From: Candidatus Acididesulfobacter guangdongensis
GTDB taxonomy: Bacteria; SZUA-79; Acidulodesulfobacterales; Acidulodesulfobacteraceae
DNA length: 64,000 bases
NCBI GenBank assembly: GCA_004195045.1
Contig: SGBC01000004.1
Location: forward strand, 28,631-92,630
Direction of reading: 5' to 3'
Shown here: piece by piece, positions 5,258 to 60,026 of the stretch
Numbering within the stretch: position 1 is the stretch's first letter
Layout: the number at the start of each line of letters is the position of its first letter
Made by a program: the position numbers and the translations under genes
The notes under the pieces: model-generated
Seen by the model: only the letters and a program-made list of their open reading frames with translations
What the model was told of the DNA's origin: nothing
The model's database searches: none

Positions 5258-7084
5258 ATGGAATCTCAAAAACTCGGCGAAATTTTAGTAAAACACGGCA
5301 GTGTAAAAAAAGACGATATAAATAATGCTTTATTAATACAGGAAAAGATAAGAAATGGAATAAAAAAAGGCCAACAATTACAGGATGCTAAACTTGGAGA
5401 AATACTTGTTAAGAATAATATTGTTACCGCAAATCAGTTAGAACTGGCGCTTGAAGAACAGGGAAAAACAGGAGGCAGTATCGGTAGGCAGCTTTCAAAG
5501 CTAGGTTTCGTTAAAGATTCCGAACTTGTTTCGTTTTTATCAAAAGAGTTCGGCGCGGCTACCGTTAATCTTCTTTCCTCGGCAATACCGTCCGATGTTA
5601 TCAAATTAATTCCGCCGGATACTGCGTTAAAATATCATGTGGTTCCGTATAAAAGACAGGGCAATACTTTATATCTGGCAGTTTCTGATCCTACAAAGGT
5701 CACTGTGCTTGAGGATATTAAATTTTATACCGGACTTAATGTTGAAGTGGTACTTGCGGCGGAATCAGAAATAAATCAGGCGCTATCGACCTATTATAAT
5801 GCTTCAAGTATTTTGACTGAGCATAAAGACTATATTGATTCTATTTCTATTGAGGACACTAACGAAGAAATTGATATTTCAGAATTACAAAGGTCTTCTT
5901 CCGAAAAACCTATAATCCAATTTGTTAATAAAGTTATATCAGATGGAATTAGAAGAGGCGCAAGCGATTTGCATTTTGAACCATATGAAAATAATATACG
6001 CGTGAGATTCAGAATAGACGGAAAACTTAATGAAATCATGACAGTTCCGGGACAGCTGAAAAATGCTATAAGTTCAAGAATTAAAATTATGTCTCAAATG
6101 GACATAGCCGAAAGAAGAATGCCTCAGGACGGCAGAATAAAAGTCAGGGTAGAAAGTAAAGAAGTTGATATAAGGGTATCGTGCCTTCCCATATTGTACG
6201 GAGAAAAGATAGTTATGAGAATATTAGATAAGTCTTCTCTTCAGCTTGATATGAAAAAATTAGGATTTTCCGATAATCAGCTTAATGATTTTCAAGATGC
6301 TATTCATAAACCATACGGGATGATTTTAGTTACGGGACCGACCGGTTCAGGAAAAACAACCACTCTTTATAGCGCTCTGAGCGATTTAAATAAAAAAACC
6401 GTTAATATTTCTACGGCGGAAGACCCTGTAGAATATAATATTTACGGTATTAATCAGGTACAGATTAATGAAGATATAGGTTTGACGTTTGCTCAGGCGC
6501 TGCGTTCTTTTTTAAGACAGGACCCTGATATAATAATGGTAGGTGAGATAAGAGATTTAGAAACTGCGGAAATCGCTATAAAGGCTGCTTTAACAGGTCA
6601 TTTAGTTCTTTCAACTATTCATACCAATAATGCTGCGTCTACGATTTCCCGATTGATCAATGTAGGCGTTGAACCGTTTCTTGTGGCATCAAGCCTTAAT
6701 CTCGTAATAGCGCAAAGACTCATAAGAAAATTATGCACAGAATGTAAAGAACCATATATACCCGATGACAGGATGCTTCAAGGTTTCGGCTTTGAAGACG
6801 GCATAATAAAACGTAACGTATTGTATAAAGCTAAAGGATGTTCTGCCTGTATGAACACGGGATATAAGGGCAGGATTGCAATATATGAAGTGCTTACGGT
6901 AACCGATGACATTAAAGATTTAATTTATAAGAATGCAAATGAATTTGAAATTGAAAATATAGCCGTTAAAAACCATGGAATGATTACTTTAAGCGAATCG
7001 GCAAAAGAAAAATTTATCTCGGGCATAACCTCTATGGAAGAAATATTGCAATATCTTAAAACAAGTAATAATATAATTATATGA
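5258..7084 (+). CDS. pilB: type IV pilus assembly ATPase PilB (GspE family)
   Basis: Walker A VTGPTGSGKTTT, Asp/His boxes, tetracysteine CTECKE...CSACMNTG, and N-terminal T2SSE_N/MshEN-like repeats (KLGEILVK... twice). Confidence 0.9.
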   Translation: MESQKLGEILVKHGSVKKDDINNALLIQEKIRNGIKKGQQLQDAKLGEILVKNNIVTANQLELALEEQGKTGGSIGRQLSKLGFVKDSELVSFLSKEFGAATVNLLSSAIPSDVIKLIPPDTALKYHVVPYKRQGNTLYLAVSDPTKVTVLEDIKFYTGLNVEVVLAAESEINQALSTYYNASSILTEHKDYIDSISIEDTNEEIDISELQRSSSEKPIIQFVNKVISDGIRRGASDLHFEPYENNIRVRFRIDGKLNEIMTVPGQLKNAISSRIKIMSQMDIAERRMPQDGRIKVRVESKEVDIRVSCLPILYGEKIVMRILDKSSLQLDMKKLGFSDNQLNDFQDAIHKPYGMILVTGPTGSGKTTTLYSALSDLNKKTVNISTAEDPVEYNIYGINQVQINEDIGLTFAQALRSFLRQDPDIIMVGEIRDLETAEIAIKAALTGHLVLSTIHTNNAASTISRLINVGVEPFLVASSLNLVIAQRLIRKLCTECKEPYIPDDRMLQGFGFEDGIIKRNVLYKAKGCSACMNTGYKGRIAIYEVLTVTDDIKDLIYKNANEFEIENIAVKNHGMITLSESAKEKFISGITSMEEILQYLKTSNNIII

Positions 7085-43511: not shown

Positions 43512-43997
43512 TTGGAAAATTTAAATTTTAAAATTGGAAAAATTGACGGTATAGCCGTGTTGCCTGTTGCAAAAAATATAGATGAAAGAGGATGGCTTGC
43601 CGAACTTTACAGAACAGATGAACTTGATGAAAGTATATTTCCTAAGATGGCTTACGTTTCATTGACAAATCAGGGGGTCAGAAGAGGTCCTCACGAACAT
43701 AAAACGCAGACAGACTATTTTTGTTTTATCGGACCGTCAAATTTCAAAATAATTTTATGGGATAACAGGAAAAGTTCAAAAACATATATGAATAAAACCG
43801 TTTTATTTTTTGGAGAAGATAAACCGGCCTCCGTCATTGTTCCGCCTGGAGTAGTCCATGCTTACAAGAATATAGGCATAACAGCCGGAATAGTCATTAA
43901 CGCAGCTAATGTGCTGTATGCCGGATATAAAAAGCAGGAACCTGTCGATGAGATAAGATATGAGAATGATGCTGAAACGATTTTTAAATTTGATTGA
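43512..43997 (+). CDS. RmlC-like cupin (dTDP-4-dehydrorhamnose 3,5-epimerase family)
   Basis: TTG start. DERGWLAELYR...GVRRGPHEHK...VIVPPGVVHAYKNIG resembles the RmlC/sugar epimerase cupin pattern. Confidence 0.6.
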   Translation: MENLNFKIGKIDGIAVLPVAKNIDERGWLAELYRTDELDESIFPKMAYVSLTNQGVRRGPHEHKTQTDYFCFIGPSNFKIILWDNRKSSKTYMNKTVLFFGEDKPASVIVPPGVVHAYKNIGITAGIVINAANVLYAGYKKQEPVDEIRYENDAETIFKFD

Positions 43998-44027
43998 TAA
44001 AAATATTTTTTAACATATGCCTAATAT

Positions 44028-45194
44028 ATGCTTATTAGAGAACTTATTTCAAATGAAATAGAAAACATTAAGCTGAAAGGTTTTTATAGACAGCTCAATG
44101 AAAATAAAAACAATAATGCGATTATTAACTTATCGTCCAATGATTATCTTGGATTGGCTTATAATGCGGAAATAAAAAGAGCTGCAAAACAAATAATTTC
44201 TGCATATCCTCTGTCTAGCGCGTCGTCTCCTTTAATGTACGGCTATTTTATGCCGCATATTGATTTGGAAAACAAATTATGCAGCTTCAAAGGAGGATAT
44301 GAAAGATGTATTCTTTACCCGTCAGGCTATCAGGCAAATATGGGAGTAATCTCCGCTTTATCGGGAATATCGCTCAGTAAAACCTTTATAGCGTTTGATG
44401 AATTATCCCATGCGTCAATTGTTGACGGCGTATTGTGTTCAAAAGCAAAATTCAGAAGATTTAGGCATAATGATTCTGAGCATCTTGATAAAATATTAAA
44501 AAAATATAGTTCCTATGAAATAAAAATCGTTATAACAGAAGGCGTATTCAGTATGGATGGCGATATTGCCGATCTGCCGGATATTATAAATGTATCAAAA
44601 GATAATAACGCAATTACGATTCTTGACGATGCCCACGCTACCGGAACTATAGGGTCGCTTGGCGGAGGCAGCTGCAATTTTTACAGCGACAACGGCGTAA
44701 AACTGAAACCGGATGTTATGGTCGGTACGCTTGGTAAAGCTCTTGCTTCTGAGGGAGCTTTTGTTCTTTCTGATAATTTAATTATTGACTATTTAATAAA
44801 TAAAAGCAGACCGTATATTTTTTCTACGGCAATATCTCCTGTTGCTGCAGGTATCGCGCTGCAGGCGTTAAATATTATTGAAAATAAACCTGAATTAGTT
44901 ATTAAATTACAGATGATGTCTCAAAATATCAGGATTGTTTTAAAAAATAGCGGATTAAATATTCTGAATTCAAATACGCATATAATACCCATATTGATAG
45001 GCGATGAAATAAAGGCTGCAGAAATAGAAAAGACATTCATTAATAAAGGTATACTTCTAAAAGCGGTTAAATATCCTACTGTTGCCAAAGGCAGCGCCAG
45101 GTTGCGTTTAAGTGTAAATGCTGGGCTTAGCGATGCCGATGTCAAATACGTTTTAGATAATCTAACAGGATTGATTAAACAAATAGGTCATTAA
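44028..45194 (+). CDS. bioF: 8-amino-7-oxononanoate synthase (alpha-oxoamine synthase family)
   Basis: SNDYLGL, FSMDGD, DDAHATG and the PLP-lysine context GTLGKALAS. Adjacent to the BioC-like methyltransferase. Confidence 0.8.
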   Translation: MLIRELISNEIENIKLKGFYRQLNENKNNNAIINLSSNDYLGLAYNAEIKRAAKQIISAYPLSSASSPLMYGYFMPHIDLENKLCSFKGGYERCILYPSGYQANMGVISALSGISLSKTFIAFDELSHASIVDGVLCSKAKFRRFRHNDSEHLDKILKKYSSYEIKIVITEGVFSMDGDIADLPDIINVSKDNNAITILDDAHATGTIGSLGGGSCNFYSDNGVKLKPDVMVGTLGKALASEGAFVLSDNLIIDYLINKSRPYIFSTAISPVAAGIALQALNIIENKPELVIKLQMMSQNIRIVLKNSGLNILNSNTHIIPILIGDEIKAAEIEKTFINKGILLKAVKYPTVAKGSARLRLSVNAGLSDADVKYVLDNLTGLIKQIGH

Positions 45195-45246
45195 ATTTTG
45201 TTAAATATTAGTTAATTAATGTGGCAGCTGCTGCATATATGCATAT

Positions 45247-46281
45247 ATGATAAATAAAAATAAAATCAATAAAATAGATAAAAACAAAGTTAAAAAAAAT
45301 TTTTCAAATTCTCATCAATATGATAATGCAATATCGTATCATAGCATCACCCTTGAAATGATTGCGGACGACATATTATCTTTTTTTATATCGCGGCATA
45401 GTGCAGTATTTATTAATAATGACGGCTGGTTAAATAGATTAAACATTCTTGATGCAGGCTGCGGAACGTGCAACGGACTTTTGCATATTAAAAACAAAAT
45501 AAATAATAACAATATAAAGAATTTTGATTTTATCTATCTGGGGGTTGACATAGCATTAGGAGCATTAAAAAGAGGGCAGTCAAAAGTTAAAGCCGATGAA
45601 ACTGGCGGTGCTTATTTGTGTTGCGCTGATTGTGAAGAAATGCCGGTAAAGAATAAAATAATGAATGTTGTTTTTTCTAATATGGTTTTGCACTGGCTAA
45701 ATAAACCTTTACATTTTATTAAATCAGTTAAAAACAGTTTAAACTTAGATAGTGAAAATTTATTTATCTGCTCATTTCTTTCCGAAGGTACGTTAAAAGA
45801 ACTTAATCTGTGCTATGATAAATATAAATATTCGGGCGGCAATACTGCGAAAAATGTTGCCCTCCATAAATTCCCCGATGCCTGTTATATTAAAGAGCTA
45901 TTAATTTCCGAAGGTTTTGTCGTAGAAGAATTTAAAATTGTAGAACATAAAGAATATGCGAAAACAGCTTTTGAATTATTTAAGAGGATAAATCTTATAG
46001 GAGCTAAAAATTCTACAAATAATTTTATTATAAAAGATGATTTAAATAAAACTAAACCTGAAATAAAAAACACAGAATTATGTAAAAATAACGCAAGCGT
46101 AAATAATCAGCCTGCATCTATTGGCGATCATGCCGATAATATTAGAAGCGAGCCTATTTTTTCACGATATTCAATCCTTAAAAAAGTTCTGAAAGATTAT
46201 GAAAATACATACACTGCAGATGGGGATAATGTTTACGCCTCTTATTATTTAACTTATATAAGAGCAAAACTTGCAGATTAA
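45247..46281 (+). CDS. class I SAM-dependent methyltransferase, BioC-like with a long C-terminal extension
   Basis: SAM motif ILDAGCGTCNG and VFSNMVLHWL. Follows bioF. About 80 aa longer than typical BioC. Confidence 0.6.
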   Translation: MINKNKINKIDKNKVKKNFSNSHQYDNAISYHSITLEMIADDILSFFISRHSAVFINNDGWLNRLNILDAGCGTCNGLLHIKNKINNNNIKNFDFIYLGVDIALGALKRGQSKVKADETGGAYLCCADCEEMPVKNKIMNVVFSNMVLHWLNKPLHFIKSVKNSLNLDSENLFICSFLSEGTLKELNLCYDKYKYSGGNTAKNVALHKFPDACYIKELLISEGFVVEEFKIVEHKEYAKTAFELFKRINLIGAKNSTNNFIIKDDLNKTKPEIKNTELCKNNASVNNQPASIGDHADNIRSEPIFSRYSILKKVLKDYENTYTADGDNVYASYYLTYIRAKLAD

Positions 46282-47218: not shown

Positions 47219-48268
47219 ATGGATAGTTATGCCGATAATAAAAAAAATGAATTTTATATTCAGTGGCATTTTATGGACAGCTGTAATCTAAGATGTATTC
47301 ATTGCTATCAGAATGATTATCTATTTAAAGAGCCCGACTTAAATAACTTAAATATTATTTTTCGCAAACTTGATGATGCTTTGGCAAAATGGAAAATGAA
47401 CGGTTTTGTTTCATTGACGGGAGGAGAACCGTTCCTGAGTCCTTCATCTTTATTTTATGTGGCTGAATTAATAGAAAATTCGCCAAATTTTCAAAATGTT
47501 GCCATATTATCAAACGGTACGTTAATAGGCGAAAATATTATTAAAGAAATTAAAAGGTTTAAAAAAATTACGGAGATTCAAATATCTATAGACGGACCTA
47601 ATGCTCAAATACATGAATCCATAAGAGGAAAGGGTACGTTTTTGAAAACGGTTGAAACTGTTAAAAAATTAGTCGGTGCAGGATTAAAAACTTCTATCAT
47701 GTTTACGGTGCATAAAAAAAATATGGATTATGCCGAGGATATGCTGTATTTAGCTAAAGAGCTTAAAGTAAATGCCTTAACTGTTGAAAGAATGACAACA
47801 ATGAATGAAGAAGAAAAAAAAGAATTTTTTATAAATCCTTATGATTTAGAAAGAATTTATAAAAACATATATGAAAAATCTAAAGTAATATTTGCAGAAT
47901 CTGCGACAAGACTTATAACTTCCAGACCGTTATGGAATCTGGTAGATGAAAATGCAGGCGGATTTTGCCCGGTAGGGCTTTCTTCGGTCTGCATTCTGCA
48001 TGACGGTACCGTGCTTCCCTGCAGAAGGCTATATTTGCCGCTGGGAAATATTATTGAAGAAGGTCTCTTTAAAATATGGTATGGTTCAAAAATTTTATGG
48101 GATATGAGAAATAAGAAAAATATTTCGGATAATAGCGGCGCTCATACGCAATCTGCATGTTCGGATATTAATTGTTCCCATTTTAAAAGATGCGGAGGAT
48201 GCAAGGCGATAAGCTATTATTATCATGGAAATATACACGAAAAAGATCCTCAATGCTGGCTCAGCTGA
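47219..48268 (+). CDS. radical SAM/SPASM-domain peptide-modifying enzyme (putative RiPP maturase)
   Basis: CX3CX2C at C22/C26/C29 (SCNLRCIHCY) and a GGEP SAM motif. The C-terminus has 8 Cys in a SPASM-like arrangement (FCPVG..VCILHDGTVLPC...ACSDINCSHFKRCGGC...PQC). Confidence 0.85.
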   Translation: MDSYADNKKNEFYIQWHFMDSCNLRCIHCYQNDYLFKEPDLNNLNIIFRKLDDALAKWKMNGFVSLTGGEPFLSPSSLFYVAELIENSPNFQNVAILSNGTLIGENIIKEIKRFKKITEIQISIDGPNAQIHESIRGKGTFLKTVETVKKLVGAGLKTSIMFTVHKKNMDYAEDMLYLAKELKVNALTVERMTTMNEEEKKEFFINPYDLERIYKNIYEKSKVIFAESATRLITSRPLWNLVDENAGGFCPVGLSSVCILHDGTVLPCRRLYLPLGNIIEEGLFKIWYGSKILWDMRNKKNISDNSGAHTQSACSDINCSHFKRCGGCKAISYYYHGNIHEKDPQCWLS

Positions 48269-48381: not shown

Positions 48382-48660
48382 ATGAATGTTAAATATAAAC
48401 TTTTACCTCAATATATTCTGCATAATGACGGAACGGACAAGTATATGCTATTTGATACGCAGACAGGCGGCATATACAAATTAAATGCCGTATCATTTAA
48501 TATTTTGTCCCTTTGCAGCGGTGAATACACAAGCGATGAAATAAAAGATGAGATCTTAAAAATGTTTGATGTTGACTTAGATGTTTTAACTGAAGATTTT
48601 AATGATATTATTACAAAATTTCTAAATGAAAATATAATTTCTTGCCCAACTTCACCATGA
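48382..48660 (+). CDS. PqqD-family peptide chaperone (RiPP recognition element)
   Basis: 92 aa. YMLFDTQTGGIYKLNAVSFNILSLCSGEYTSDEIKDEILKMFDVDLDVLTEDFNDIITKFLNENII has the PqqD length and pattern (beta strands followed by a helical bundle). Confidence 0.75.
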   Translation: MNVKYKLLPQYILHNDGTDKYMLFDTQTGGIYKLNAVSFNILSLCSGEYTSDEIKDEILKMFDVDLDVLTEDFNDIITKFLNENIISCPTSP

Positions 48661-48889
48661 TTATCAGCAGCATATTGTACTATAATTTATGGGGCAATAA
48701 AAATGCCTGTGAAGACTACAAAATAAAAAATAAAATGTAATAATATTAATGTGTTGTAATATAATTTTAGAATAACAAAAGTGGTGAAGTTGGGCTAAAA
48801 CTCCTAAAAAAATGTTTTTTTGGGATTAATGAATTTTTTTATAATTTTTCTTAAAATAACGTCAGTTAAAATTAAGGAGGTGAAAAAAC

Positions 48890-48994
48890 ATGAAAACCAA
48901 TTACGAAAAGCCGATTTTGGAAAATCTGGATGCCGAAGAATTTTATTCAACTTTGATGGAAAACTATGGAATTAACGATTCGTGCTATTCTTGA
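48890..48994 (+). CDS. candidate 34-aa RiPP precursor peptide MKTNYEKPILENLDAEEFYSTLMENYGINDSCYS
   Basis: Hand-translated; below the ORF-track size cutoff. TAAGGAGGTG ends 7 nt before the ATG. Followed by a strong hairpin plus T-run (49034-49104). Same strand as, and directly after, the rSAM and PqqD genes. Confidence 0.55.
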   Translation: MKTNYEKPILENLDAEEFYSTLMENYGINDSCYS

Positions 48995-49033
48995 AAATCC
49001 TGCAAGTGAAATGTGCAGTTGGCACATAAGAAT

Positions 49034-49104
49034 TAAGCGCCTTATTCTTGAAATATTAAAAAAATATAAAAAGAAAAAGGCGCTTATTTTATTTATTTTT
49101 TTTA
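49034..49104 (+). terminator. intrinsic terminator after the candidate precursor peptide
   Basis: TAAGCGCCTTATTCTT (49034-49049) pairs with AAGAAAAAGGCGCTTA (49071-49086) with one mismatch. Followed by TTTTATTTATTTTTTTT. Confidence 0.7.
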
Positions 49105-49204
49105 ATTTTCATTGATTATACTGTATTGATTTGAAATATTGCGTAATTATTGCAGCAATAGTTTAGTTGAAGTTTTATGCATATTAAAATATAAAATACT
49201 TATA

Positions 49205-49256: not shown

Positions 49257-50039
49257 TTATATTGTTTTGCCGATTATTTTTTGTAAATCTTTTATATCTT
49301 TTCTTGCATTAATTTCAAAATTATTATCAATATTGATATTATTTTTTGCAGTTATATCATCAAGCCCGATTTTATATTTATTTTTAACGGCTGTGTCTAT
49401 AAGCATATCGCAAAAAATAAAATTTTTCGGCAAAATACTTCCATGCATATATGTACCGTAGAAATTATTTGCGACAGCCCCCTCGCTTTTATCTGCGCCG
49501 TTGTTGCCGTATCCAGCCAACACTTTTCCGAAACTCTGCTGCGATTCAGATAAGTACGTTCTCCCCCCGTGATTTTCAAATCCTACAATTATAATATCGC
49601 CGAAAATAGAGGCTATATTTCCTGTTAATCGGGGTTTTTCCGGTTCAGCTATTGTATGTCCGCTAAAAATAGAAATGCCTTCTATTATTTTATTATCTGC
49701 AGCTTTGTAGTAATTTAGCAGAAGCTGATAGCCACCGCAAATTGAAAGCATTATTTTGCCTGCATCTTTAGCATCTTTAAGCTCATTTTTCTTGTTAATT
49801 GTTAAATCTTTATAAATCAAAGCCTGTTCGGAATCCTGCCCTCCGCCGATAAACATAATGTCCGTTTTGTTTATGTCTATTTTTTCGCCTATAGTAGACG
49901 ATTTAATGTCAACGTTTATTCCATAAAGTGAGGCTCTGTACTTAAAATATAGAATATTTCCTCTATCCCCGTATATATTCATAATCTCAGGATAAAGGTC
50001 AACGGCTTTCAATTTTAGCTTCAGCGAATTATTATTCAT
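49257..50039 (-). CDS. gatD: lipid II isoglutaminyl synthase, glutaminase subunit GatD (CobQ-type GATase)
   Basis: Motif-by-motif match to S. aureus GatD as I recall it: LYPEIMNIYGDRGNI, FIGGGQDSEQAL, ICGGYQLL (catalytic Cys), RLTGNI, VGFENHGGRTY, GYGNNGADKSEG, GTYMHGSILPKN. Confidence 0.88.
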   Translation of the reverse strand: MNNNSLKLKLKAVDLYPEIMNIYGDRGNILYFKYRASLYGINVDIKSSTIGEKIDINKTDIMFIGGGQDSEQALIYKDLTINKKNELKDAKDAGKIMLSICGGYQLLLNYYKAADNKIIEGISIFSGHTIAEPEKPRLTGNIASIFGDIIIVGFENHGGRTYLSESQQSFGKVLAGYGNNGADKSEGAVANNFYGTYMHGSILPKNFIFCDMLIDTAVKNKYKIGLDDITAKNNINIDNNFEINARKDIKDLQKIIGKTI

Positions 50040-50235
50040 TTTTGTGTAGATAGAATTTAGTGAAATTAGATAAAAAGCAAAGCCTGAATTTAGTTTAATT
50101 CATCATTAAATAATTGCCCGTTATTTTTTGATATTGTTTTATTAGTTTGTTTATCTGTTTAATAAGTTATGACATTGTGATAAAATTGTACCGACTGTTG
50201 CGCTATAATTAATTTTATTTTATTAATAAACTAAG

Positions 50236-50315
50236 ATTGCGTCTATTGTAACATAATTTAATGCTTTAAATTAAAATTGCATTGATTATACCATAATTCG
50301 ATGCTTTAGCTTAAA
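50236..50315. repeat. degenerate 40-bp tandem duplication in the gatD upstream region
   Basis: 50236-50275 and 50276-50315 both begin ATTGC and end TTAAA. 31 of 40 positions match by hand alignment. Confidence 0.7.
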
Positions 50316-50468
50316 TAGATTAAATTGTTTATTGCATAATATAACTTAAATATACATTATAAGTTATAAATATAAAAAATATAAATAAAATATAAATATC
50401 GCACCTGCTTTCAGATATAACTTAAATAAAATAATAAAATAAAAATAATTAAAAAAGGAAAAATTATT

Positions 50469-50885
50469 ATGAAGCTGATACACACCGCTATAAAAACCGT
50501 AAATTTAGACAAATCTTTAGCCTTCTATACCGATATATTAAATATGCATATTAAAGAAAAAAAATATATTGAAGCGCATAAAGTAACGCTGGTTTTTTTA
50601 CAAGATGATGCATCAAATTTTGAAATAGAACTTATTTTTGAAGCAGATGCTGAAAATGAAAAAACAGAAAATGTAAATTATGGGCACACAAATGGCGCCG
50701 ATTGCAGTTTTGCCCATTTTGCTTTTATGACAGATAATATAGACAGAGATTTTATCGCCATGAAAGAAAAAGGAGCCGTATTTATGCGCGAACCATTTTA
50801 TTCGCTTGATAAAAGTATGAAATTAGCATTTATTAAAGATCCTGACGATAATACGATAGAATTGATACAATATTTTAAATTATAA
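50469..50885 (+). CDS. VOC-family protein (glyoxalase I / methylmalonyl-CoA epimerase-like)
   Basis: HTAIKTVNLDKSLAFYTDILNM...FEIELI...HFAF...DPDDNTIELI, the typical paired beta-alpha-beta-beta-beta pattern with metal ligands. Confidence 0.7.
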   Translation: MKLIHTAIKTVNLDKSLAFYTDILNMHIKEKKYIEAHKVTLVFLQDDASNFEIELIFEADAENEKTENVNYGHTNGADCSFAHFAFMTDNIDRDFIAMKEKGAVFMREPFYSLDKSMKLAFIKDPDDNTIELIQYFKL

Positions 50886-50921
50886 AAATAAAAATGACTT
50901 TCATTTTTTTATTTTTTATTT

Positions 50922-51371
50922 CTATACCTGAGTGCCGCGATTGACGCTATTGTATTTAACTTTGACTATTGTATCAAGTCCGCCCCTTGATTCAAATTTT
51001 GCTTCAATTTCCATATATTGAGGTTTCAATAAGTCAGTCAAATCATTTAATATTCGGTTTACGGCATGCTCCTGAAGTATTCCGATGTTCCGAAAAGACA
51101 GCAGATAATATTTTAACGACTTCATTTCAACGAGACTGTCATTCGGAATATATTTTATATTAAGTTCTGCCGTATCAGGAAGTCCGCTCCAGGGACAGAC
51201 TGAAGTAAATTCTTTTGTTCCGATATTCACTTCTGTTCCGCTTTGAGGATAATCGAAAGGGATTGTTTCTAAAACTTTTACGTCTATACCGGCTTCAGTT
51301 TTAATATCAAATCTTTTTTCTTTGTATTTGTTATCGTCATAGTGATTGTACTGCTCATATAAATCAGACAT
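50922..51371 (-). CDS. queF: NADPH-dependent 7-cyano-7-deazaguanine (preQ0) reductase, unimodular type
   Basis: Catalytic Cys context EFTSVCPWSGLPD and the QueF motif VEMKSLKYYL. Confidence 0.9.
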   Translation of the reverse strand: MSDLYEQYNHYDDNKYKEKRFDIKTEAGIDVKVLETIPFDYPQSGTEVNIGTKEFTSVCPWSGLPDTAELNIKYIPNDSLVEMKSLKYYLLSFRNIGILQEHAVNRILNDLTDLLKPQYMEIEAKFESRGGLDTIVKVKYNSVNRGTQV

Positions 51372-51778
51372 AATATTATAATCTCCTTAAAATAAAATGA
51401 CCGGAAAATAAAATAGCCGGCAGGCATTATTTATTAGACAACAGGGTGTTAACGCATCAGCTAAGTAAGGCAGCAGACGTATAATCAATTATTTATTATA
51501 ATTTATTGATTGTAATTATTATATCTCGTGCATATAATTCGTTTTTTTTGTTTGATAATATGCAATTTTTCATTTAAGATATGTATATGATATATATCAA
51601 ACAAAAAGAAAAACAAACAAACAAATCATTATTATATTGCGAGATAATCAATAATCAAATAATCAGTAATAAATAATATAGCATAAAAAAATCAGTTTTA
51701 AAATTATTAAATTATTTAATAAATTAAATATTAAACTAAAGATAAATATAATTATAAAATAAATACGTAAAATATATA

Positions 51779-52699
51779 ATGTCAACTGATAATAGCCGAC
51801 CGATAGGTATTTTTGATTCCGGATTGGGCGGTCTGACCGTATTCAAAGAAATACGGCAATTGCTTAGATATGAAAATCTTATATATTTCGGTGATACGGC
51901 AAGAGTACCTTACGGAAACAAATCGAAAGAAACAATTTTAAGATATTCCAAAGAAATAACAAAATTTTTACTAAAAAATGATGTAAAACTTATTGTCGTT
52001 GCCTGCAATACCGTATCAAGTTTAGCTCTTGATGAATTAAAAAAAGAATTCGGCATACCTATTTTTGGCGTGATAGAGCCGGGCGCCAGATGCGCTTATA
52101 AAAAATTAATTGAAAGAAGCCGCAGTGAGAATAAAGGAACTGCAACTGAAAAAAAAATCTTAAGCGATGCAGCAGCCGATTTGTCCGATACGGCAACTAT
52201 AGCAGTTATCGGAACATCTGCAACAATAGGGAGCAAGGCTTATTCCAACGCAATAAACAGATTAAATAATTATAATAACGGCGAAGGCGCAAACATAAAT
52301 GTTAAGATAATAGAAAAAGCCTGTCCTTTATTAGTCCCGCTTGTAGAAGAAGGTTGGATTAATTCCGATATTACACGCGATGTAATAAAATATTATTTGC
52401 AGCCTGTAATTGAAAGCAATCCGTTTTCTATCGTTCTTGGTTGCACCCATTATCCGATGTTAAAAAAAATTATCTCAGAAATTGCGGATAACAGCACAGA
52501 AATTATTGATTCAGGAAAAGAAGTCGCTATAGAAGTAAAAAATTTTTTACTTAGAAATAAAATGTTAAATGGCAAGGCTGATAGACCTTATGAAAAATAT
52601 TATGTCAGCGACGATCCTGAAAAATTTAAATTGCTGGGAAGCAATTTTATCGGCAGCAATATAACGGAGCATATCGAAGTTGTAATTGATTTTCTTTAA
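51779..52699 (+). CDS. murI: glutamate racemase
   Basis: IGIFDSGLGGLTV, VVACNTVS and LGCTHYP catalytic motifs. Contains an internal insertion of about 30 aa. Confidence 0.9.
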   Translation: MSTDNSRPIGIFDSGLGGLTVFKEIRQLLRYENLIYFGDTARVPYGNKSKETILRYSKEITKFLLKNDVKLIVVACNTVSSLALDELKKEFGIPIFGVIEPGARCAYKKLIERSRSENKGTATEKKILSDAAADLSDTATIAVIGTSATIGSKAYSNAINRLNNYNNGEGANINVKIIEKACPLLVPLVEEGWINSDITRDVIKYYLQPVIESNPFSIVLGCTHYPMLKKIISEIADNSTEIIDSGKEVAIEVKNFLLRNKMLNGKADRPYEKYYVSDDPEKFKLLGSNFIGSNITEHIEVVIDFL

Positions 52700-52800
52700 A
52701 TAACATTTTATATAATAACATTTAATATTTAATATAATTTACATGAAAAAATTAAAAAAATAAATGAAAAAAGGCATACATTAAAAAAGGTTCAAAAACT

Positions 52801-55266
52801 ATGATAAAAAATTTTAGAAAAGAATTGCAAAAAAGATTAATTATGTCCGATGGCGCATTGGGCACTGTTTTACAGCTTCAAGGTCTTCTGCCTAAAGGTT
52901 TATTGCCTGAAAGTTTTAATATAACCGATAAAATTGAGCATATTATAGCTGTTCATAAAAGCTATGCGGAGGCTGGAAGCGAAATATTAGTGGCAAACAC
53001 TTTTGGGGCAAATAGAATAAAACTCGCAGAATACGGTCTGGAAAACAAATTATATGAAATTAATTATAATGCCGTAAAAGCAGCGCAAAAAGCCTCCGAA
53101 GGCAAATGTCTTATAGCTATGTCTTTAGCTCCTACCGGAAAATTTATTTATCCGGTCGGTGAATTAACATTCAAGGAAAGCGTTGAATTATATAAAGAAC
53201 AGATAAAAGCCGGTCTCGATGCCGATGTTGATTTATTTCAGCTTGAAACTATGATAGATCTGCAGGAGGTCAGAGCGGCAATAATAGCCGTTAAAGAATT
53301 AAGCGACAAACCGGTAATAGCGATGATGACATTTGATAATACATACAGAACTATTCTTGGCACCACCCCCGAAGTTTTCGCCGTTACCGCCGACAGTCTG
53401 GGTGTCGATGTTATCGGAGCAAATTGTTCCGTCGGACCAGAAGATATTTATGAAATTTTAAAAAAAATGGCTGCCGTTACCGATATTCCTCTCATTTCTA
53501 AGCCTAATGCAGGCATACCTTCTTTAATAAACGGAAAAACCATATTTCCAGGCAAGCCGGATGATTTTTCCAAAATAATAGAAGAACTTGCATTAATAGG
53601 AGTCAGGGTTGTATCAGCCTGCTGCGGTAGCAATAGCTCGTTTATCAGAGCTATGTCGGACGAAGTAAAGATAATAAACAGCGGCGGATTACCCGAAAAA
53701 GGTATAAAAAGAGAACCGGGGCTTTTTGTAACTTCCAGAACATCAGTTATAGGATTAGGCTCTAATCATCCGCCTGTCATGATAGGGGAAAGAATAAATC
53801 CTACGGGAAAAAAAGATTTTATAGAAGAGTTAAAAAACGGCAAAACTAATTATATTAGAAAAACTGCTAAAATTCAAATCGATGACGGCGCATCCATGCT
53901 TGATATTAATGTCGGCGTTCCCGGTACTGACGAAATTGAACTGATGAAAAAAGCAATCTTGGCTGCTTCTAATGTTGTGCAGAGCCCCTTAGTTATAGAT
54001 TCTTCCAATCCTGATGCCGTAGAAGAGGCTCTCATGCTATATCCTGGTAAAGCATTGATTAATTCTATAAGCGGCGAAGAAAAAAAGTTAACTAAATTAA
54101 TGCCTCTTATTAAAAAATACGGCGCTGCCGTTATAGTTCTTGCTTTAGACGACGGCGGCATTCCCGAAACATCGGATGAGAGAATCAAAACTGCGTATAA
54201 AGTTTATTACAAACTAACGGATTTTGGCATTAAATCGTATGATGTTATGATCGATTTTTTAACCCTTCCGATAAGCGCCGGACAAGATAAGGCGCTGATA
54301 ACATTAGACGCGATTAAAAAAAATAAAACTATTCTGAATCTTCCTACCGTTCTGGGCGTCAGTAATATATCTTTCGGTTTGCCGAAAAGAACCCATATTA
54401 ATGCAGCTTTTTTAACGATGTGTTTTTCGGAAGGATTGAGCGCCGCTATAGTAAATCCAGAAGACGAACTGCTAACAGGCAGTTTTTATGCGGTAAAAGT
54501 TTTAATAGCCAAAGATTATCTTGCAAAGGCTTATATAAATCATTTTTCGGAAAAAGCAAACAGTTATAATAACGAAAAAAATTTAAACACGTCAGAAAAA
54601 TCTAAAAATGCAGATGATAAAAGCAATATCTTAAGTCCGGGCGAAAAATTGTACAGCGCTGTTTTAAACGGAGAAAAAGAAGGCGTTGTTTCTATTGTGG
54701 AAAATTTGCTGTCCGAGGGTATAGCACCTTTAGAAATAGGCAATAAATATTTAATACCTGCACTTGAAGAAGTTGGAAAGCTTTTTGATAAAAATATATA
54801 TTTTTTGCCGCAGGTTATGGAAAGCGCAGAGGTTATGAAGATTGCTTTTGCCAGAATTAAGAGAGATTTGCCGAAAAACATAAACGATGCTGAAACCGTA
54901 AAAATTTTAATGGCGACCGTTGAAGGAGATGTTCACGATATCGGCAAAAATATTGTCGCAACGCTTTTAGAAAATAACGGTTTTGAGGTTATCGACCTTG
55001 GCAGAAATGTAAAGACCGAAAAAATAGTTGAAGAGGCAATAAAAAACAAAGTCGATTTTGTAGGGCTATCGGCTTTGATGACGACTACCGTCGGTGAAAT
55101 GGAAAATGTTATAAAAGAATTGAAAAAAAACGGTATAAATGTTTTTTCAATGGTCGGCGGAGCCGTAGTAAACGAAGATTATGCAAAGTCTATAAATGCT
55201 GATATTTATGCAAAAAATGCTATGGAAGCTGTTGAAAAAATTAAACAATTAATAAATAAAAAATGA
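52801..55266 (+). CDS. metH: cobalamin-dependent methionine synthase, short form lacking the AdoMet reactivation domain
   Basis: Hcy-methyltransferase N-domain (DGALGT...GANCS...ACCGS), pterin-binding domain (LDINVG...ISFGLP), and B12 domain with DVHDIGKN (DxHxxG), SALMTTT and GGA. The ORF ends about 30 aa after the B12 domain. Confidence 0.88.
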   Translation: MIKNFRKELQKRLIMSDGALGTVLQLQGLLPKGLLPESFNITDKIEHIIAVHKSYAEAGSEILVANTFGANRIKLAEYGLENKLYEINYNAVKAAQKASEGKCLIAMSLAPTGKFIYPVGELTFKESVELYKEQIKAGLDADVDLFQLETMIDLQEVRAAIIAVKELSDKPVIAMMTFDNTYRTILGTTPEVFAVTADSLGVDVIGANCSVGPEDIYEILKKMAAVTDIPLISKPNAGIPSLINGKTIFPGKPDDFSKIIEELALIGVRVVSACCGSNSSFIRAMSDEVKIINSGGLPEKGIKREPGLFVTSRTSVIGLGSNHPPVMIGERINPTGKKDFIEELKNGKTNYIRKTAKIQIDDGASMLDINVGVPGTDEIELMKKAILAASNVVQSPLVIDSSNPDAVEEALMLYPGKALINSISGEEKKLTKLMPLIKKYGAAVIVLALDDGGIPETSDERIKTAYKVYYKLTDFGIKSYDVMIDFLTLPISAGQDKALITLDAIKKNKTILNLPTVLGVSNISFGLPKRTHINAAFLTMCFSEGLSAAIVNPEDELLTGSFYAVKVLIAKDYLAKAYINHFSEKANSYNNEKNLNTSEKSKNADDKSNILSPGEKLYSAVLNGEKEGVVSIVENLLSEGIAPLEIGNKYLIPALEEVGKLFDKNIYFLPQVMESAEVMKIAFARIKRDLPKNINDAETVKILMATVEGDVHDIGKNIVATLLENNGFEVIDLGRNVKTEKIVEEAIKNKVDFVGLSALMTTTVGEMENVIKELKKNGINVFSMVGGAVVNEDYAKSINADIYAKNAMEAVEKIKQLINKK

Positions 55267-55300
55267 CAATTTCACAAGGGCTGTAAAATTTTTTAAAGGA

Positions 55301-55353
55301 AATTTGATTATTGAAACCTGAATATCTAACAAAATAGAAAGGTTAATCAAATT
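55301..55353 (+). other. imperfect hairpin after metH (possible terminator or RNA element)
   Basis: AATTTGATT/AATCAAATT (9 bp) plus AACCT/AGGTT (5 bp), with a 5-nt bulge and a 20-nt loop. TTTTT lies only 10 nt downstream. Confidence 0.3.
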
Positions 55354-55420
55354 GCACAATTTTTAATCAGCAGGTAAGTTGTTAAAATATTAGAGTAATT
55401 CTTAAGTTATTGAAATTATT

Positions 55421-56992
55421 ATGTATTTAAATATAAAAAATAAAATTGAAATCATTCTGTATAAATTTTTTAAACTGATTTTAGTTGCAGTTTTCAAAAG
55501 AAACGGGGATGTATTACCGATTTATTTGCTAAAAAAATTAGATAAAAATTTAATTGATAATTTTGCAAGAGATATAAATGCTATAAATATTCCGGTAATA
55601 TTTGTCACAGGAACTAACGGAAAAACTACAACCGCCAATTTAATAGCTTCAGGTTTAAATAAAGCCGGTATGAAAGTTTGTTCAAACATCAACGGAGCAA
55701 ATATGACAAACGGCATTTTCGGGTCTATTATTGAGCGATATTCATTTAATGGCAAATTTAATGCGGATATTATGGTAATTGAAACAGACGAGAAGGTTTT
55801 TCCATATATTATTTCAAAAATAAATCCGGATCTTGTAGTAATTACTAATTTTTATAGAGACCAGTTAGACAGATACGGAGAAGTAAATACTACAATGCTC
55901 AGTATTAAAAAATCAATACAGTCTTTAAAAACTTATCCTGTTTTAATTTTGCCTTCCAATGAACCTCTCGCGTCTTTTGTGGGATTTAATACTAAAAATA
56001 AAAAGTTTTATTTTAACGTTAAATCAGAGAAAAAAGAATTTAATAATGATTACAACAACAATAATAATGACAATAACAACGGTAAAAGCAATAATGACAA
56101 ATTAAATACATTAAATGCTTTAGGTAGCGATTTAGATGACCATAACTTATGTAAACGCGAAAAAGAAAATAGCAATATCGCTTTAACCGATGCAATCTCC
56201 TGCCCTCAATGCGGAAATATATTGTCCGCTTATTTTAACGTTCATTATACTATGATAAATTATTGCTGTAATTATTGCGGATATAAAAACGCTGCTGCTG
56301 ATGTAGAGGCAGAATCGTCCGGCGATGATTATATAACTTTTAATTTTAAAAATATGGAAGAATTTAATTCTAAGGTAAAAAGCAAAGGATTCTATTTTAA
56401 GCCTTCAATACAGGGTTATTATAACATATTAAACTATATGGCAGCCTTTCTGGTGCTAAAATTTTATTGCATAGACGACGAGATAATAAAAAAAACATTT
56501 GAAAATTATTCCACAAAATTTGGCAGGTCTTTTAAGAAAATAGTTCAAGGAATAGAGTGCAGCATAGATTTAGTAAAAAATCCATCAGGATTCAACAATG
56601 TATTAGAAAAGATATTTGAAAAAGATGATTGCATTAATGCTTTATTTGCTTTTTCCGACAGAGATGCGGACGGCAGGGATATTTCATGGATTTGGGACGT
56701 AAATTTTGAAAAATATATTAATAAATTTAATAATATTGCAATTACGGGGCTTAGACCGTACGATATGGCTATAAGGCTTAAAACTGCCGGAATAGATATA
56801 AAGAAAATAAAAGTAAATCATAATGTTAAAAAAGCGTTTAACGGAATTATAAATGACAGATATAATTACGGCAATGCCGTAGACGGCAGCTATAACTGCT
56901 GTAATTACAGCAATAATAAAAAAAAATTAAATAAACTCTATATATTTTCAACTTATACAGAACTTTCAAATTTAGAAAAAATTATTGTATAA
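55421..56992 (+). CDS. murT: lipid II isoglutaminyl synthase, ligase subunit MurT (Mur-ligase fold plus DUF1727)
   Basis: VTGTNGKTTTANLI, VIETDE, ITNFYRDQLDRYGE, a Cys4 ribbon (CPQCGN...CNYCGY), and DADGRDISWIWDVNFEK (DUF1727). All parallel S. aureus MurT. Confidence 0.88.
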   Translation: MYLNIKNKIEIILYKFFKLILVAVFKRNGDVLPIYLLKKLDKNLIDNFARDINAINIPVIFVTGTNGKTTTANLIASGLNKAGMKVCSNINGANMTNGIFGSIIERYSFNGKFNADIMVIETDEKVFPYIISKINPDLVVITNFYRDQLDRYGEVNTTMLSIKKSIQSLKTYPVLILPSNEPLASFVGFNTKNKKFYFNVKSEKKEFNNDYNNNNNDNNNGKSNNDKLNTLNALGSDLDDHNLCKREKENSNIALTDAISCPQCGNILSAYFNVHYTMINYCCNYCGYKNAAADVEAESSGDDYITFNFKNMEEFNSKVKSKGFYFKPSIQGYYNILNYMAAFLVLKFYCIDDEIIKKTFENYSTKFGRSFKKIVQGIECSIDLVKNPSGFNNVLEKIFEKDDCINALFAFSDRDADGRDISWIWDVNFEKYINKFNNIAITGLRPYDMAIRLKTAGIDIKKIKVNHNVKKAFNGIINDRYNYGNAVDGSYNCCNYSNNKKKLNKLYIFSTYTELSNLEKIIV

Positions 56993-58583: not shown

Positions 58584-60026
58584 ATGGATAGCTTAAACAA
58601 ATATTTAAGAAAATTTCCGAAAATTCAATTAATTTTGCAGGATGAAGGTGTCAAAAAATTAATAGACAAATATTCTTATAATGCCGTAAAAGATAAATTA
58701 GAAGAAATATTGTCAGAAGAAAAAGAGAAAATAAAAATAAAAATAAATTTTAAAGATGATGCAGTACTTGAAGACAATATTTTTAAAATAGAGCGCTTCG
58801 CATTTTTGCTGAATGATTATTTTAATAACTTTTCATTCAGTCTTAAAAGGGTTATTAACGGAACGGGCGTAGTTGTTCATACCAATCTTGGCAGGTCTAT
58901 CTTGCCGAAAGCGGCAGTTGAAAATGTGTTTAAAATATCTTCTTCATATTCAAATCTTGAATTCAATCTTGAAGAAGGAATGAGGGGTAAAAGATATTCC
59001 CATGTGGAAACATTGCTTAACAGAATTTTAAACTGTGAAGCGGCTATTGTAGTTAATAATAATGCTGCTGCCGTGTTTATGGCGTTAAATACTTTTGCCG
59101 CAGGAATCAAAAAAGAAGTTATAGTTTCGAGAGGCGAGCTTGTTGAAATAGGCGGTTCGTTTAGAATTCCGGATATAATGAAAGCGTCAGGAGCGCAGCT
59201 TATCGAAGTCGGAACTACAAATAAAACTAAAATTAATGATTACGAATCAGAAATAAACGAAAATACGGCGCTGCTGCTTAAAGTTCATCACAGCAATTTT
59301 AAAATGACGGGATTTGTTCACGAGGTAAATTCTAAAGAGCTTGTAGAAACAGGAGAAAAATACAATATTCCTGTTATGGAAGATCTCGGTTCAGGAAGTT
59401 TTATCAAATTTGAAAAATTCGGTCTTCCAAAAGAGCCTACCGCTCAGGAAGTTATTAACGCAGGGATTGATATAGTAACATTCAGCGGAGACAAACTTCT
59501 TGGCGGACCGCAGGCAGGTATTATTGCAGGCAAAAAAGAGTATGTTGATTTAATTGCAAAAAACCCGTTAAACAGGGCTTTCAGGATTGACAAAATGACT
59601 CTGGCGGCGCTTGAAGCAGTCTTGTTTGAATATTTAGATATAAATAACGCTATCAAGAACATTCCGACCCTCCGCCTGCTTTCACAAAATATTTTAGAAA
59701 TAAAAAAAAGAGGGTTAAAACTTTTAAATAAGGTTAAAAAGCTTGAAAGCACCTATAAAATCATGTATACTTTTAACATTATAGAAGATTTCAGTATTGT
59801 AGGAGGCGGAGCAATGCCTGATTACGAAATGAAAACATATTGCCTGTCCGTTACTCATAAATTTTTTGCGGCGGAAAAATTAAGCGAAATATTCAGAGGT
59901 TTACAAATACCTGTTGTCGGTAAAATCAAAGACGGTAAATTCCTGATCGATTTAAGGACTGTTTTAGATGACGATATAAACGATATAATCGGAAATTTCA
60001 TAAAAGTTTCTCAGATGTCAAATTAA
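58584..60026 (+). CDS. selA: L-seryl-tRNA(Sec) selenium transferase
   Basis: VINGTGVVVHTNLGRS and the PLP-lysine motif FSGDKLLGGPQAGII. Confidence 0.9.
   Translation: MDSLNKYLRKFPKIQLILQDEGVKKLIDKYSYNAVKDKLEEILSEEKEKIKIKINFKDDAVLEDNIFKIERFAFLLNDYFNNFSFSLKRVINGTGVVVHTNLGRSILPKAAVENVFKISSSYSNLEFNLEEGMRGKRYSHVETLLNRILNCEAAIVVNNNAAAVFMALNTFAAGIKKEVIVSRGELVEIGGSFRIPDIMKASGAQLIEVGTTNKTKINDYESEINENTALLLKVHHSNFKMTGFVHEVNSKELVETGEKYNIPVMEDLGSGSFIKFEKFGLPKEPTAQEVINAGIDIVTFSGDKLLGGPQAGIIAGKKEYVDLIAKNPLNRAFRIDKMTLAALEAVLFEYLDINNAIKNIPTLRLLSQNILEIKKRGLKLLNKVKKLESTYKIMYTFNIIEDFSIVGGGAMPDYEMKTYCLSVTHKFFAAEKLSEIFRGLQIPVVGKIKDGKFLIDLRTVLDDDINDIIGNFIKVSQMSN

Follow-up and report, generated by a model that had tools for sequence, protein, structure and literature searches.

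A putative selenocysteine-containing precursor peptide beside a radical SAM/SPASM enzyme and a PqqD protein in Candidatus Acididesulfobacter guangdongensis

Candidatus Acididesulfobacter guangdongensis carries, on contig SGBC01000004.1 of assembly GCA_004195045.1, a gene for a radical S-adenosylmethionine (rSAM) enzyme with a SPASM domain, followed by a gene for a discrete PqqD-family protein and by a very short open reading frame (ORF). The window analysed here is the whole stretch of 64,000 nucleotides from position 28,631 to 92,630 of the forward strand of this contig, and the coordinates of its features are counted from its first letter. An original prediction, made from the letters alone, had proposed the ORF at 48890-48994 as a 34-aa precursor peptide with a single Cys. 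The locus raises the question of what the substrate of the enzyme pair is, and where the gene encoding it ends. Here we report a comparative analysis in which the ORF is extended through an in-frame TGA, read as selenocysteine (Sec), and is placed with its two neighbours in a putative cassette for a peptide made on ribosomes and modified after translation (RiPP).

The peptide gene, its in-frame TGA and the hairpin downstream

The frame opened by the ATG at 48890 consists of 34 sense codons, MKTNYEKPILENLDAEEFYSTLMENYGINDSCYS, followed by a TGA at 48992-48994; start, frame and terminal TGA are as originally described. A Shine-Dalgarno site, AAGGAGGTGA (48874..48883, + strand), ends 6 nt 5' of the ATG and matches over 10 nt, while the 46 long ORFs of the window reach at most 6 nt, and the strong, well-spaced ribosome-binding site that had been claimed is the best among the ORFs compared. 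The end of the gene was revised, the TGA being most probably a Sec codon rather than a stop. Past it the frame runs on as ...DSCYS-U-KSCK to a TGA stop at 49007-49009. The gene was re-called at 48890..49009 (+ strand), with 39 codons and a TGA stop; the earlier 34-codon ORF (48890..48994, + strand) is its portion up to the Sec codon (48992..48994, + strand; U35). The re-called product is MKTNYEKPILENLDAEEFYSTLMENYGINDSCYSUKSCK (39 residues), with a Y-x2-P leader and a C-x2-U-x2-C core. The peptide had been described as having one Cys only, three residues from the end; this is wrong, because the core holds C32, U35 and C38.

The case for Sec starts from relatives with Cys in place of the TGA. 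An exhaustive search of protein-cluster representatives with the 34-mer returned two true relatives, one of which, P0122 (MKKTYNVPLFQEIPAEEFYSLIMEGYGMKDSCYSCKSCK, 39 aa), has Cys exactly at the position of the window's TGA and the same tail behind it. In an ungapped alignment Cys fills the UGA column in P0122, P0130, P0135, P0160, P0174, P0239, L002a/b and L112a. Cys and Sec alternate in two independent pairs, ...SCYS[C/U]KSCK and ...[C/U]RACF, the latter with Cys in L002b and Sec in L102b. The Sec-type set comprised 12 distinct genes, nine collected first and three found later. All 12 have TGA at the position of codon 35; as a stop, TGA ends 14 of the window's 46 long ORFs (30%), and TAA 61%. 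Behind the TGA, 11 of the 12 genes continue in frame with K-[S/E]-C-K(-K) or RACF and then with TAA, TAG or TGA. The tail codons for K36, C38 and K39 vary synonymously, the changes in the tail being AAA/AAG, TGC/TGT and GAA/GAG. Public gene calls of relatives (P0121, P0225 and P0228) list the 34-aa form, which corresponds to Sec forms cut at the UGA. Features of this sort are those by which selenoproteins are recognised in sequences, and Haft followed the same logic for truncated selenoproteins (bioRxiv 10.1101/2022.07.06.499078).

Downstream lies a short GC hairpin resembling a Sec insertion sequence (SECIS) at 49011..49027 (+ strand), which starts 16 nt after the TGA and has a 6-bp stem (49011-49016/49022-49027) and the loop AGUUG. 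Across the Sec-type genes it starts 15-21 nt after the TGA and has a G-K-U loop in which the G and the U are invariant. In a nine-sequence alignment (an earlier version of the test used seven), 93.7% of the cells were paired and five of seven pairs showed compensatory changes; none of 500 column shuffles reached the observed score, and slid alignments paired at 19-56%. All 12 TGA-type genes are followed by the hairpin, as against one of four Cys-type genes. A covariance model built from it found one strong match in the window (27.4 bits, the next 11.7), and its strong matches in 25 related loci, including L110, which lay outside the training set, stand after TGA-type peptide genes with a single exception. 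The exception, a 23.7-bit match at L087 1575-1596 (+), is antisense to an ABC-transporter gene and probably due to chance. The apical part, GCAGGUUGC, closely resembles what we take to be the apex of the Escherichia coli fdhF SECIS, GCAGGUCUGC, whose loop G and U presumably contact SelB.

The window also encodes SelA, the L-seryl-tRNA(Sec) selenium transferase (58584..60026, + strand, 480 aa), 9.6 kb downstream of the peptide gene, with a PF03841 match of 504 bits over profile positions 1-366 of 367, so that at least the SelA part of the Sec pathway exists in this organism. No other credible selenoprotein gene was found in the window, where the ORFs joined across an in-frame TGA were all antisense artefacts, and searches of the window and the related loci with the hairpin covariance model gave no further ones. 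A conserved overlapping +1 ORF after the TGA (MLFLK...) was considered and rejected, as the Sec tail and the hairpin account for its conservation and neither its start nor its stop is conserved. Judged by this comparison of sequences, the UGA at 48992-48994 very probably encodes Sec.

Several relatives carry more than one precursor gene. At L112 two tandem genes (3698-3817 and 3857-3976) follow the PqqD gene. The first is an all-Cys form, ...RSCYSCKGCK, and is thus a Cys-type gene in the position equivalent to the window's, directly after PqqD. The second reads ...DSCYS-TGA-K-T-TGA-K-TAA, with another TGA where the window has C38 and a hairpin downstream; it may encode a double-Sec core, C-x2-U-x2-U, or its second TGA may be a stop. 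The peptide genes of L002 lie at 2860-2979, 3748-3867 and 5325-5444, Cys-only paralogues (...NSCCSCKSCK and ...NSCRTCRACF) being upstream of the rSAM gene and the Sec form downstream; those of L102 lie at 86-205 and 1204-1323. At L002 and L102 alike, an unnamed Met-rich protein (191-209 aa) that, by eye, appears to be secreted is encoded between two peptide genes. A by-eye reading of these proteins as LTXXQ/CpxP-like was dropped, since no Pfam match was obtained.

Linkage to the rSAM and PqqD genes and the peptide superfamily

The association of a precursor-type gene with the rSAM/PqqD pair, as had been proposed, is conserved in many loci. A homologous peptide gene stands directly after rSAM-PqqD in L001, L002, L004, L081, L094, L095, L098, L099, L108, L110 and L112, and at each of these loci the PqqD gene sits between the other two. 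The rSAM enzymes of the linked loci are 55-59% identical to the window's, but 92% in L001. Genome contigs had been scanned with the rSAM alignment, which gave six close relatives among 80 loci, the rest being generic rSAM patterns (CNLRCxHCY). Among close relatives with enough flanking DNA, the peptide gene follows rSAM-PqqD in all but two, L003 and L107. Loss of the ORF or of its C-terminal motif beside orthologous rSAM/PqqD pairs had been put forward as a check on the gene; when the check was run, both were found conserved.

The linkage also holds in the reverse direction. Metagenome contigs were searched with a degenerate DNA pattern for F-Y-x6-Y-G-x2-D-S-C-Y, and the 11 matches consisted of five true peptide genes and six chance ones, roughly as estimated beforehand; every true match with upstream sequence has rSAM and PqqD genes. 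Invariant residues of the peptide show synonymous codon differences between loci, and selection therefore acts at the protein level. On this comparative record the peptide gene is genuine, far beyond chance. In L003 (identical to L111) PqqD has been lost, and what remains of the peptide gene (5713-5829) is a pseudogene, interrupted by an in-frame stop and with its tail degraded. A MerA-like gene with HMA and pyridine-nucleotide-disulfide reductase domains (L111 883-2589) is located just upstream of the rSAM gene there. At L106/L107 (SGBB01000001.1) PqqD is followed by a 480-nt AT-rich stretch without a precursor gene (5350-5835), and next comes a rhodanese gene.

The rSAM enzyme (47219..48268, + strand, 349 aa) was classed as a radical SAM/SPASM peptide maturase, with matches to PF04055 (80.7 bits) and PF13186 (SPASM, 33.2 bits) that both exceed their gathering scores. 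It has the motif C22-x3-C26-x2-C29 and seven further Cys residues towards the C-terminus, all ten invariant. Its homologues are 43-90% identical, many of them unnamed and others with generic names only, and the closest are found in Candidatus Acidulidesulfobacter and related acid-mine-drainage genomes. No NCBIfam equivalog cut-off was reached, the best match being the ACGX rSAM family (120 bits, against 400), and the curated cut-offs place the enzyme in no named sactipeptide, ranthipeptide, mycofactocin, pyrroloquinoline quinone (PQQ), ACGX, GeoRSP or SynChlorMet family. An AlphaFold2 model (mean predicted local distance difference test score 87) had SkfB, CteB, SuiB and anSME as its top Foldseek matches, with the highest template modelling scores (TM-scores), 0.71-0.72, for anSME; the fold search did not discriminate among chemistries. 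By sequence and predicted fold together, the nearest solved enzymes are SkfB and CteB, followed by SuiB, anSME, TigE and PqqE.

The second gene (48382..48660, + strand, 92 aa) encodes a discrete PqqD-family peptide chaperone, that is, a leader-binding domain of the RiPP recognition element (RRE) type, with a PF05402 score of 39.1 bits (cut-off 23.4). Its closest solved sequence relative, at a weak E-value of 0.0013, is TbiB1 (5v1u), which we take to be an RRE that binds the leader of a lasso peptide and recognises Y-x2-P in it. The peptides have a conserved Y-x2-P-[LIMV]-[FLI] motif, the kind of motif that PqqD-type RRE domains recognise. Together these two observations agree with the earlier view that the N-terminal part of the peptide may be a PqqD-bound leader.

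The window peptide belongs to a larger group. Fourteen peptides of three subfamilies align without an internal gap and share an invariant Y-x2-P-x9-F-x13-C-x2-C-x2-C, which in the window peptide corresponds to Y5, P8, F18, C32, U35 and C38. The residues N29, D30 and S34, to which importance had been given as neighbours of the Cys, are not invariant: most peptides have K29, L110 has G30, and L108 and L102b have A34 and V34. Subfamily A, with ...WEEFNGGNWCFGCTNCNCN or ...NGGNWCFGCTNCNCN and the core ...NWCFGCTNCNCN, includes L084, L087, L089, L090 and L006; subfamily B, with ...EKFNGGRFCVQCSSCHGCR or ...NGGRFCVQCSSCHGCR and the core ...RFCVQCSSCHGCR, includes L007, L008 and L009; the window's own subfamily C has ...AEEFYSLIMEGYGMKDSCYS[C/U]KSCK. 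Subfamilies A and B follow homologous rSAM (34-50% identity) and PqqD genes in the same order as in the window, in Firmicutes, Omnitrophota, Thermoplasmatota, Methanoperedens and Desulfobacterales; unlike the Sec form of the window, every member seen of these two sister subfamilies is Cys-only. A search with the superfamily profile gave at least 267 clusters at E<=0.01, from Bacteria and Archaea, all of them unnamed or "hypothetical" and with zero Pfam domains. No NCBIfam or Pfam model matched any peptide subfamily (NCBIfam at E<=1, with the Cys forms and the U-to-C 39-mer), and no paper on the core motifs was found in the searched literature. All four of the examined subfamily A loci (L084, L087, L089 and L090) next encode a protein that faintly matches LVIVD, together with an unknown one, and L084 and L087 have a second rSAM of 513-516 aa.

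From order, conservation and motif taken together, the locus is likely a three-gene RiPP cassette of an rSAM/SPASM enzyme, a PqqD protein and a Sec-containing precursor, the precursor being the substrate of the enzymes next to it.

Proposed mechanism, alternative readings and gene surroundings

The comparison strongly supports 48890, behind the strong Shine-Dalgarno site, as the start of translation. In the mechanism that we propose, SelB with Sec-tRNA(Sec) would bind the hairpin and insert Sec35, and termination at the UGA at 49007 would release a 39-mer with the core C32-x2-U35-x2-C38. Under selenium scarcity, translation would end at codon 35 and give the 34-mer. The 92-aa PqqD protein would bind the leader, with its invariant Y5, P8 and F18, and hand it to the rSAM/SPASM enzyme, which would modify the C-x2-U-x2-C core. 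The enzyme is expected to hold one SAM cluster and two auxiliary clusters, and a substrate chalcogen could bind auxiliary-cluster iron, for which there is room because only seven conserved Cys ligands are available for the two clusters. One iron is thereby left with no Cys of the protein to bind it, as in CteB-type thioether synthases, in which the Cys of the substrate binds the iron concerned. Abstraction of hydrogen by a 5'-deoxyadenosyl radical would then lead to S-C and Se-C bonds, that is, to cross-links in which C32, U35 and C38 are joined to acceptor carbons located upstream in the core.

The chemistry that we tentatively suggest by analogy, with somewhat less than even confidence, is therefore thioether and selenoether cross-linking as in sacti- or ranthipeptides, because the nearest solved enzymes are SkfB and CteB and because PapB and Tte1186 make selenoethers. 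The latter two convert synthetic Sec-substituted peptides to selenoethers via Se-Fe binding at an auxiliary cluster (PMC10177961). Of the chemistries originally listed for the peptide, a thioether is still plausible, with three chalcogen donors (C-x2-U-x2-C) in place of one Cys. There is no longer a basis for a C-terminal decarboxylation like that of MftC, because the peptide ends in ...UKSCK and not in CYS, and Val-Tyr is absent.

Several observations weigh against one or another part of this account. Neither selB nor selD was seen among the window ORFs scanned, and no tRNA(Sec) gene (selC), nor any tRNA, was found in the 64-kb window. Rfam, searched over 48850-49150 at gathering and E-value thresholds, returned no SECIS or other credible family; its Rota_CRE and rox2 matches were set aside as chance hits on the AT-rich terminator hairpin. 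The true stop of the window gene is itself a UGA, 1 nt ahead of the hairpin, and the gap of 15-21 nt between UGA and hairpin is larger than that commonly given for E. coli fdhF. The Cys-type gene P0122 in L102 retains a GC hairpin after its stop (202-223, AGCGC-AGUCG-GCGCU), which could be the relic of a recent Sec-to-Cys change. At L107 (Candidatus Acidulidesulfobacter diazotrophicus, rSAM 64% identical) rSAM and PqqD are present with no peptide gene within 4 kb. As for the chemistry, SkfB, CteB, SuiB, anSME and PqqE are similarly distant from the rSAM enzyme (~14-22% identity) and no equivalog is reached. The core is at the extreme C-terminus, so the acceptors would be N-terminal to the donors; in classical sactipeptides the arrangement of donor and acceptor is the other way round.

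Other readings of the locus share part of this evidence. One keeps the Sec precursor and its enzymes and has the core undergo an SbtM-like double beta-carbon oxidation to a thio(seleno)oxazole-type heterocycle, or an anSME-like oxidation. The searched literature offered no natural Sec-containing RiPP system but SbtM/SbtA (PMC9204691), the SbtM family TIGR04082 is the third-best NCBIfam match of the rSAM enzyme (107 bits, over the catalytic and SPASM part), anSME has the highest fold-search TM-scores (0.71-0.72), and a chalcogen left free would account for the selection of Sec at a defined position. However, 107 bits is far under the cut-off of 350 and no better than the scores of unrelated SPASM families, GGUG is absent and the residue before the chalcogen is S, A or V and never Gly, and SbtM has 516 aa with an N-terminal extension where the present locus has a discrete PqqD; we regard this reading as unlikely.

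Considerably less probable still is that the gene ends at the first TGA and yields a 34-aa, single-Cys precursor, with the hairpin acting only as an element of RNA stability or termination. Gene callers do report 34-aa products (P0121, P0225, P0228), TGA is an ordinary stop in this genome (14 of 46 long ORFs), and a hairpin after a precursor gene is common. This reading leaves unexplained that TGA occurs in 12 of 12 genes, that a Cys-containing tail continues in frame with synonymous variation, that homologues (L112 included) have Cys for TGA and a tail of KSCK or RACF type, and that the hairpin tracks the TGA form. The peptide might also be a free-standing selenoprotein with a CxxU/UxxC redox or metal site, not a substrate of the rSAM enzyme and adjacent to it through co-regulation, which we hold to be the most improbable of the readings. 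Prokaryotic selenoproteins have CxxU and UxxC among their classical redox motifs (PMC13188914). The neighbours in relatives include thioredoxin-like, AhpC, rhodanese, weak DsrE-like, by-eye HMA-like and MerA-like genes, and L102-L105 hold two peptide genes with no rSAM within their short contigs. Such a protein is at odds with the rSAM-PqqD-peptide order conserved across subfamilies in Bacteria and Archaea, with the decay of the peptide where PqqD is lost (L003), and with the invariant leader-like Y-x2-P, presumably of the kind bound by an RRE.

Upstream of the peptide gene, the 45 nt preceding the ATG are identical between the window and L001, and the spacer between PqqD and peptide gene measures 229 nt in the window and 110 nt in L001. 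Within this spacer a small AT-rich hairpin, TCCTAAAAAAA TG TTTTTTTGGGA, occupies 48802-48825, and L001 is without that part. TATAAT occurs at 48840-48845, and no convincing sigma-70 promoter for the peptide gene was found in the upstream sequence, there being no convincing -35. Downstream, where a 16-bp terminator stem had been described, there are two structures instead, the 6-bp SECIS-like hairpin and a long imperfect AT-rich hairpin with a T-run (49031..49105, + strand), a probable terminator. The arms of the latter (49031-49057 and 49063-49089) are 27 nt each, 81% complementary, with a GC core AAGCGCC/GGCGCTT; the folded stretch 48985-49115 has a minimum free energy of -33.4 kcal/mol (z = -4.85). 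A consensus terminator scan of the window flagged neither downstream hairpin. The long hairpin probably terminates the cassette operon and is perhaps shared as a terminator with the convergent gatD (49257-50039, minus strand).

The genes around the cassette (43512-46281 and 49257-56992) include bioF-like and bioC-like genes, pal, gatD with a murT-like gene, a queF-like gene, murI and metH; gatD, bioC and pal were assigned by matches to family libraries, and the other housekeeping neighbours were named by eye from their translations. GatD with MurT is lipid II isoglutaminyl synthase. The cassette adjoins pal, flanked by bioF and bioC, in the window, L001, L004 and L110, and gatD is found in all of these but L110. 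No protease, transporter or exporter is linked to the cassette in the gene surroundings of the window. Elsewhere among the relatives the cassette lies near a thioredoxin-like gene, GCV_H, AhpC, rhodanese, weak DsrE-like matches and the MerA-like gene; an ORF at L002 looks HMA/CopZ-like, by eye only. As cassettes of relatives adjoin thiol-redox and metal genes, we speculate that the product is most plausibly a selenopeptide, intracellular or periplasmic, that acts in redox reactions or binds metals. Redox activity or the binding of soft metals would fit the acid-mine-drainage habitat, again as speculation.

Significance and comparison with known systems

Taken as a whole, it is possible, though doubtful, that the window peptide is the first Sec-bearing member of a large uncharacterised RiPP superfamily, with a natural selenoether, another selenium cross-link or a heterocycle as its product, and that Candidatus Acidulodesulfobacteriota, a lineage of acid mine drainage, repeatedly swapped the central Cys for Sec with a SECIS placed beyond the true stop. 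If true, the product would found a new class among selenium natural products and might be a selenopeptide that binds soft metals (Hg, Cu, As) or serves in redox reactions. Genetically encoded selenium is almost unknown in natural peptide products, and the locus would add a second family of them, unrelated to SbtA/SbtM. The natural series of Cys and Sec at one core position, sometimes with both forms at one locus, would serve as a natural experiment, addressing both the reason for using selenium and the way in which SPASM auxiliary Fe-S clusters engage a substrate chalcogen. The widespread, unnamed rSAM/PqqD/peptide superfamily would thereby gain a name and a testable substrate. Gene callers systematically cut such precursors at the Sec codon, and RiPP genome mining therefore misses the real core, just as the original prediction did. 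With three genes in ~1.8 kb the cassette is small, and for this reason it is directly testable by heterologous expression.

With the thioether SPASM maturases, namely the sactisynthases SkfB and AlbA together with CteB, Tte1186 and PapB, which act on SCIFF peptides and ranthipeptides, the system has in common a Cys-rich core and seven auxiliary-cluster Cys residues. SkfB (6efn) is the best neighbour (54.7 bits; Foldseek E 1.9e-15), with CteB (5wgg/5why), at an identity of only 20-22%. Unlike members of these families, the rSAM enzyme scores far below their cut-offs (AlbA 76 against 850, PapB 78.5 against 340, StsB 84 against 625, SkfB 60 against 300), and unlike these maturases, which carry a fused RRE, the window has a discrete RRE, and its donors are at the extreme C-terminus.

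The architecture of a short peptide, a discrete PqqD-family chaperone and an rSAM/SPASM enzyme, with no dedicated exporter and with housekeeping genes around, is that of the PqqA/D/E and MftA/B/C systems, and the window leader resembles the W-x-K-P-x-F of PqqA. Unlike PQQ and mycofactocin cassettes, the window has neither a Glu/Tyr core nor a C-terminal Val-Tyr one and no downstream tailoring genes; the rSAM enzyme reaches 81.8 bits against MftC (TIGR03962), whose cut-off is 265, and PqqE is outside its top 25 matches. With the lasso system TbiA/TbiB1 the peptide shares a leader motif of what is presumably the same Y-x2-P-x-L type, and TbiB1 is the nearest PqqD relative. Unlike lasso systems, the window has no lasso protease or cyclase, and the likeness is one of leader recognition, not of membership.

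The comparison closest in kind is that with the "selenobiotic" system SbtA/SbtM (TIGR04081/TIGR04082; Haft 2011; Lewis et al. 2021, as summarised in PMC9204691), besides which the searched literature yielded no natural rSAM peptide system with Sec, and which is also cited in a 2026 review of prokaryotic selenoproteomes. According to PMC9204691, it is limited to Geobacter and Desulfobacteria, has its Sec in GGUG and forms a thio(seleno)oxazole product. Unlike SbtM, the window rSAM enzyme scores 107.3 bits, against 350, on TIGR04082, matching profile positions 198-515 of 516; it is without the N-terminal part of ~195 aa, and its leader-binding domain is the separate PqqD protein. The Sec of the window lies in S-C-Y-S-U-K-S-C-K, not in GGUG, and, unlike SbtA, the peptide is matched by no NCBIfam model. 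The two systems are alike in having a short precursor with a UGA-encoded Sec, a SECIS directly downstream and an adjoining rSAM/SPASM maturase, in that Cys can replace Sec, and in having deltaproteobacteria-like anaerobes as hosts.

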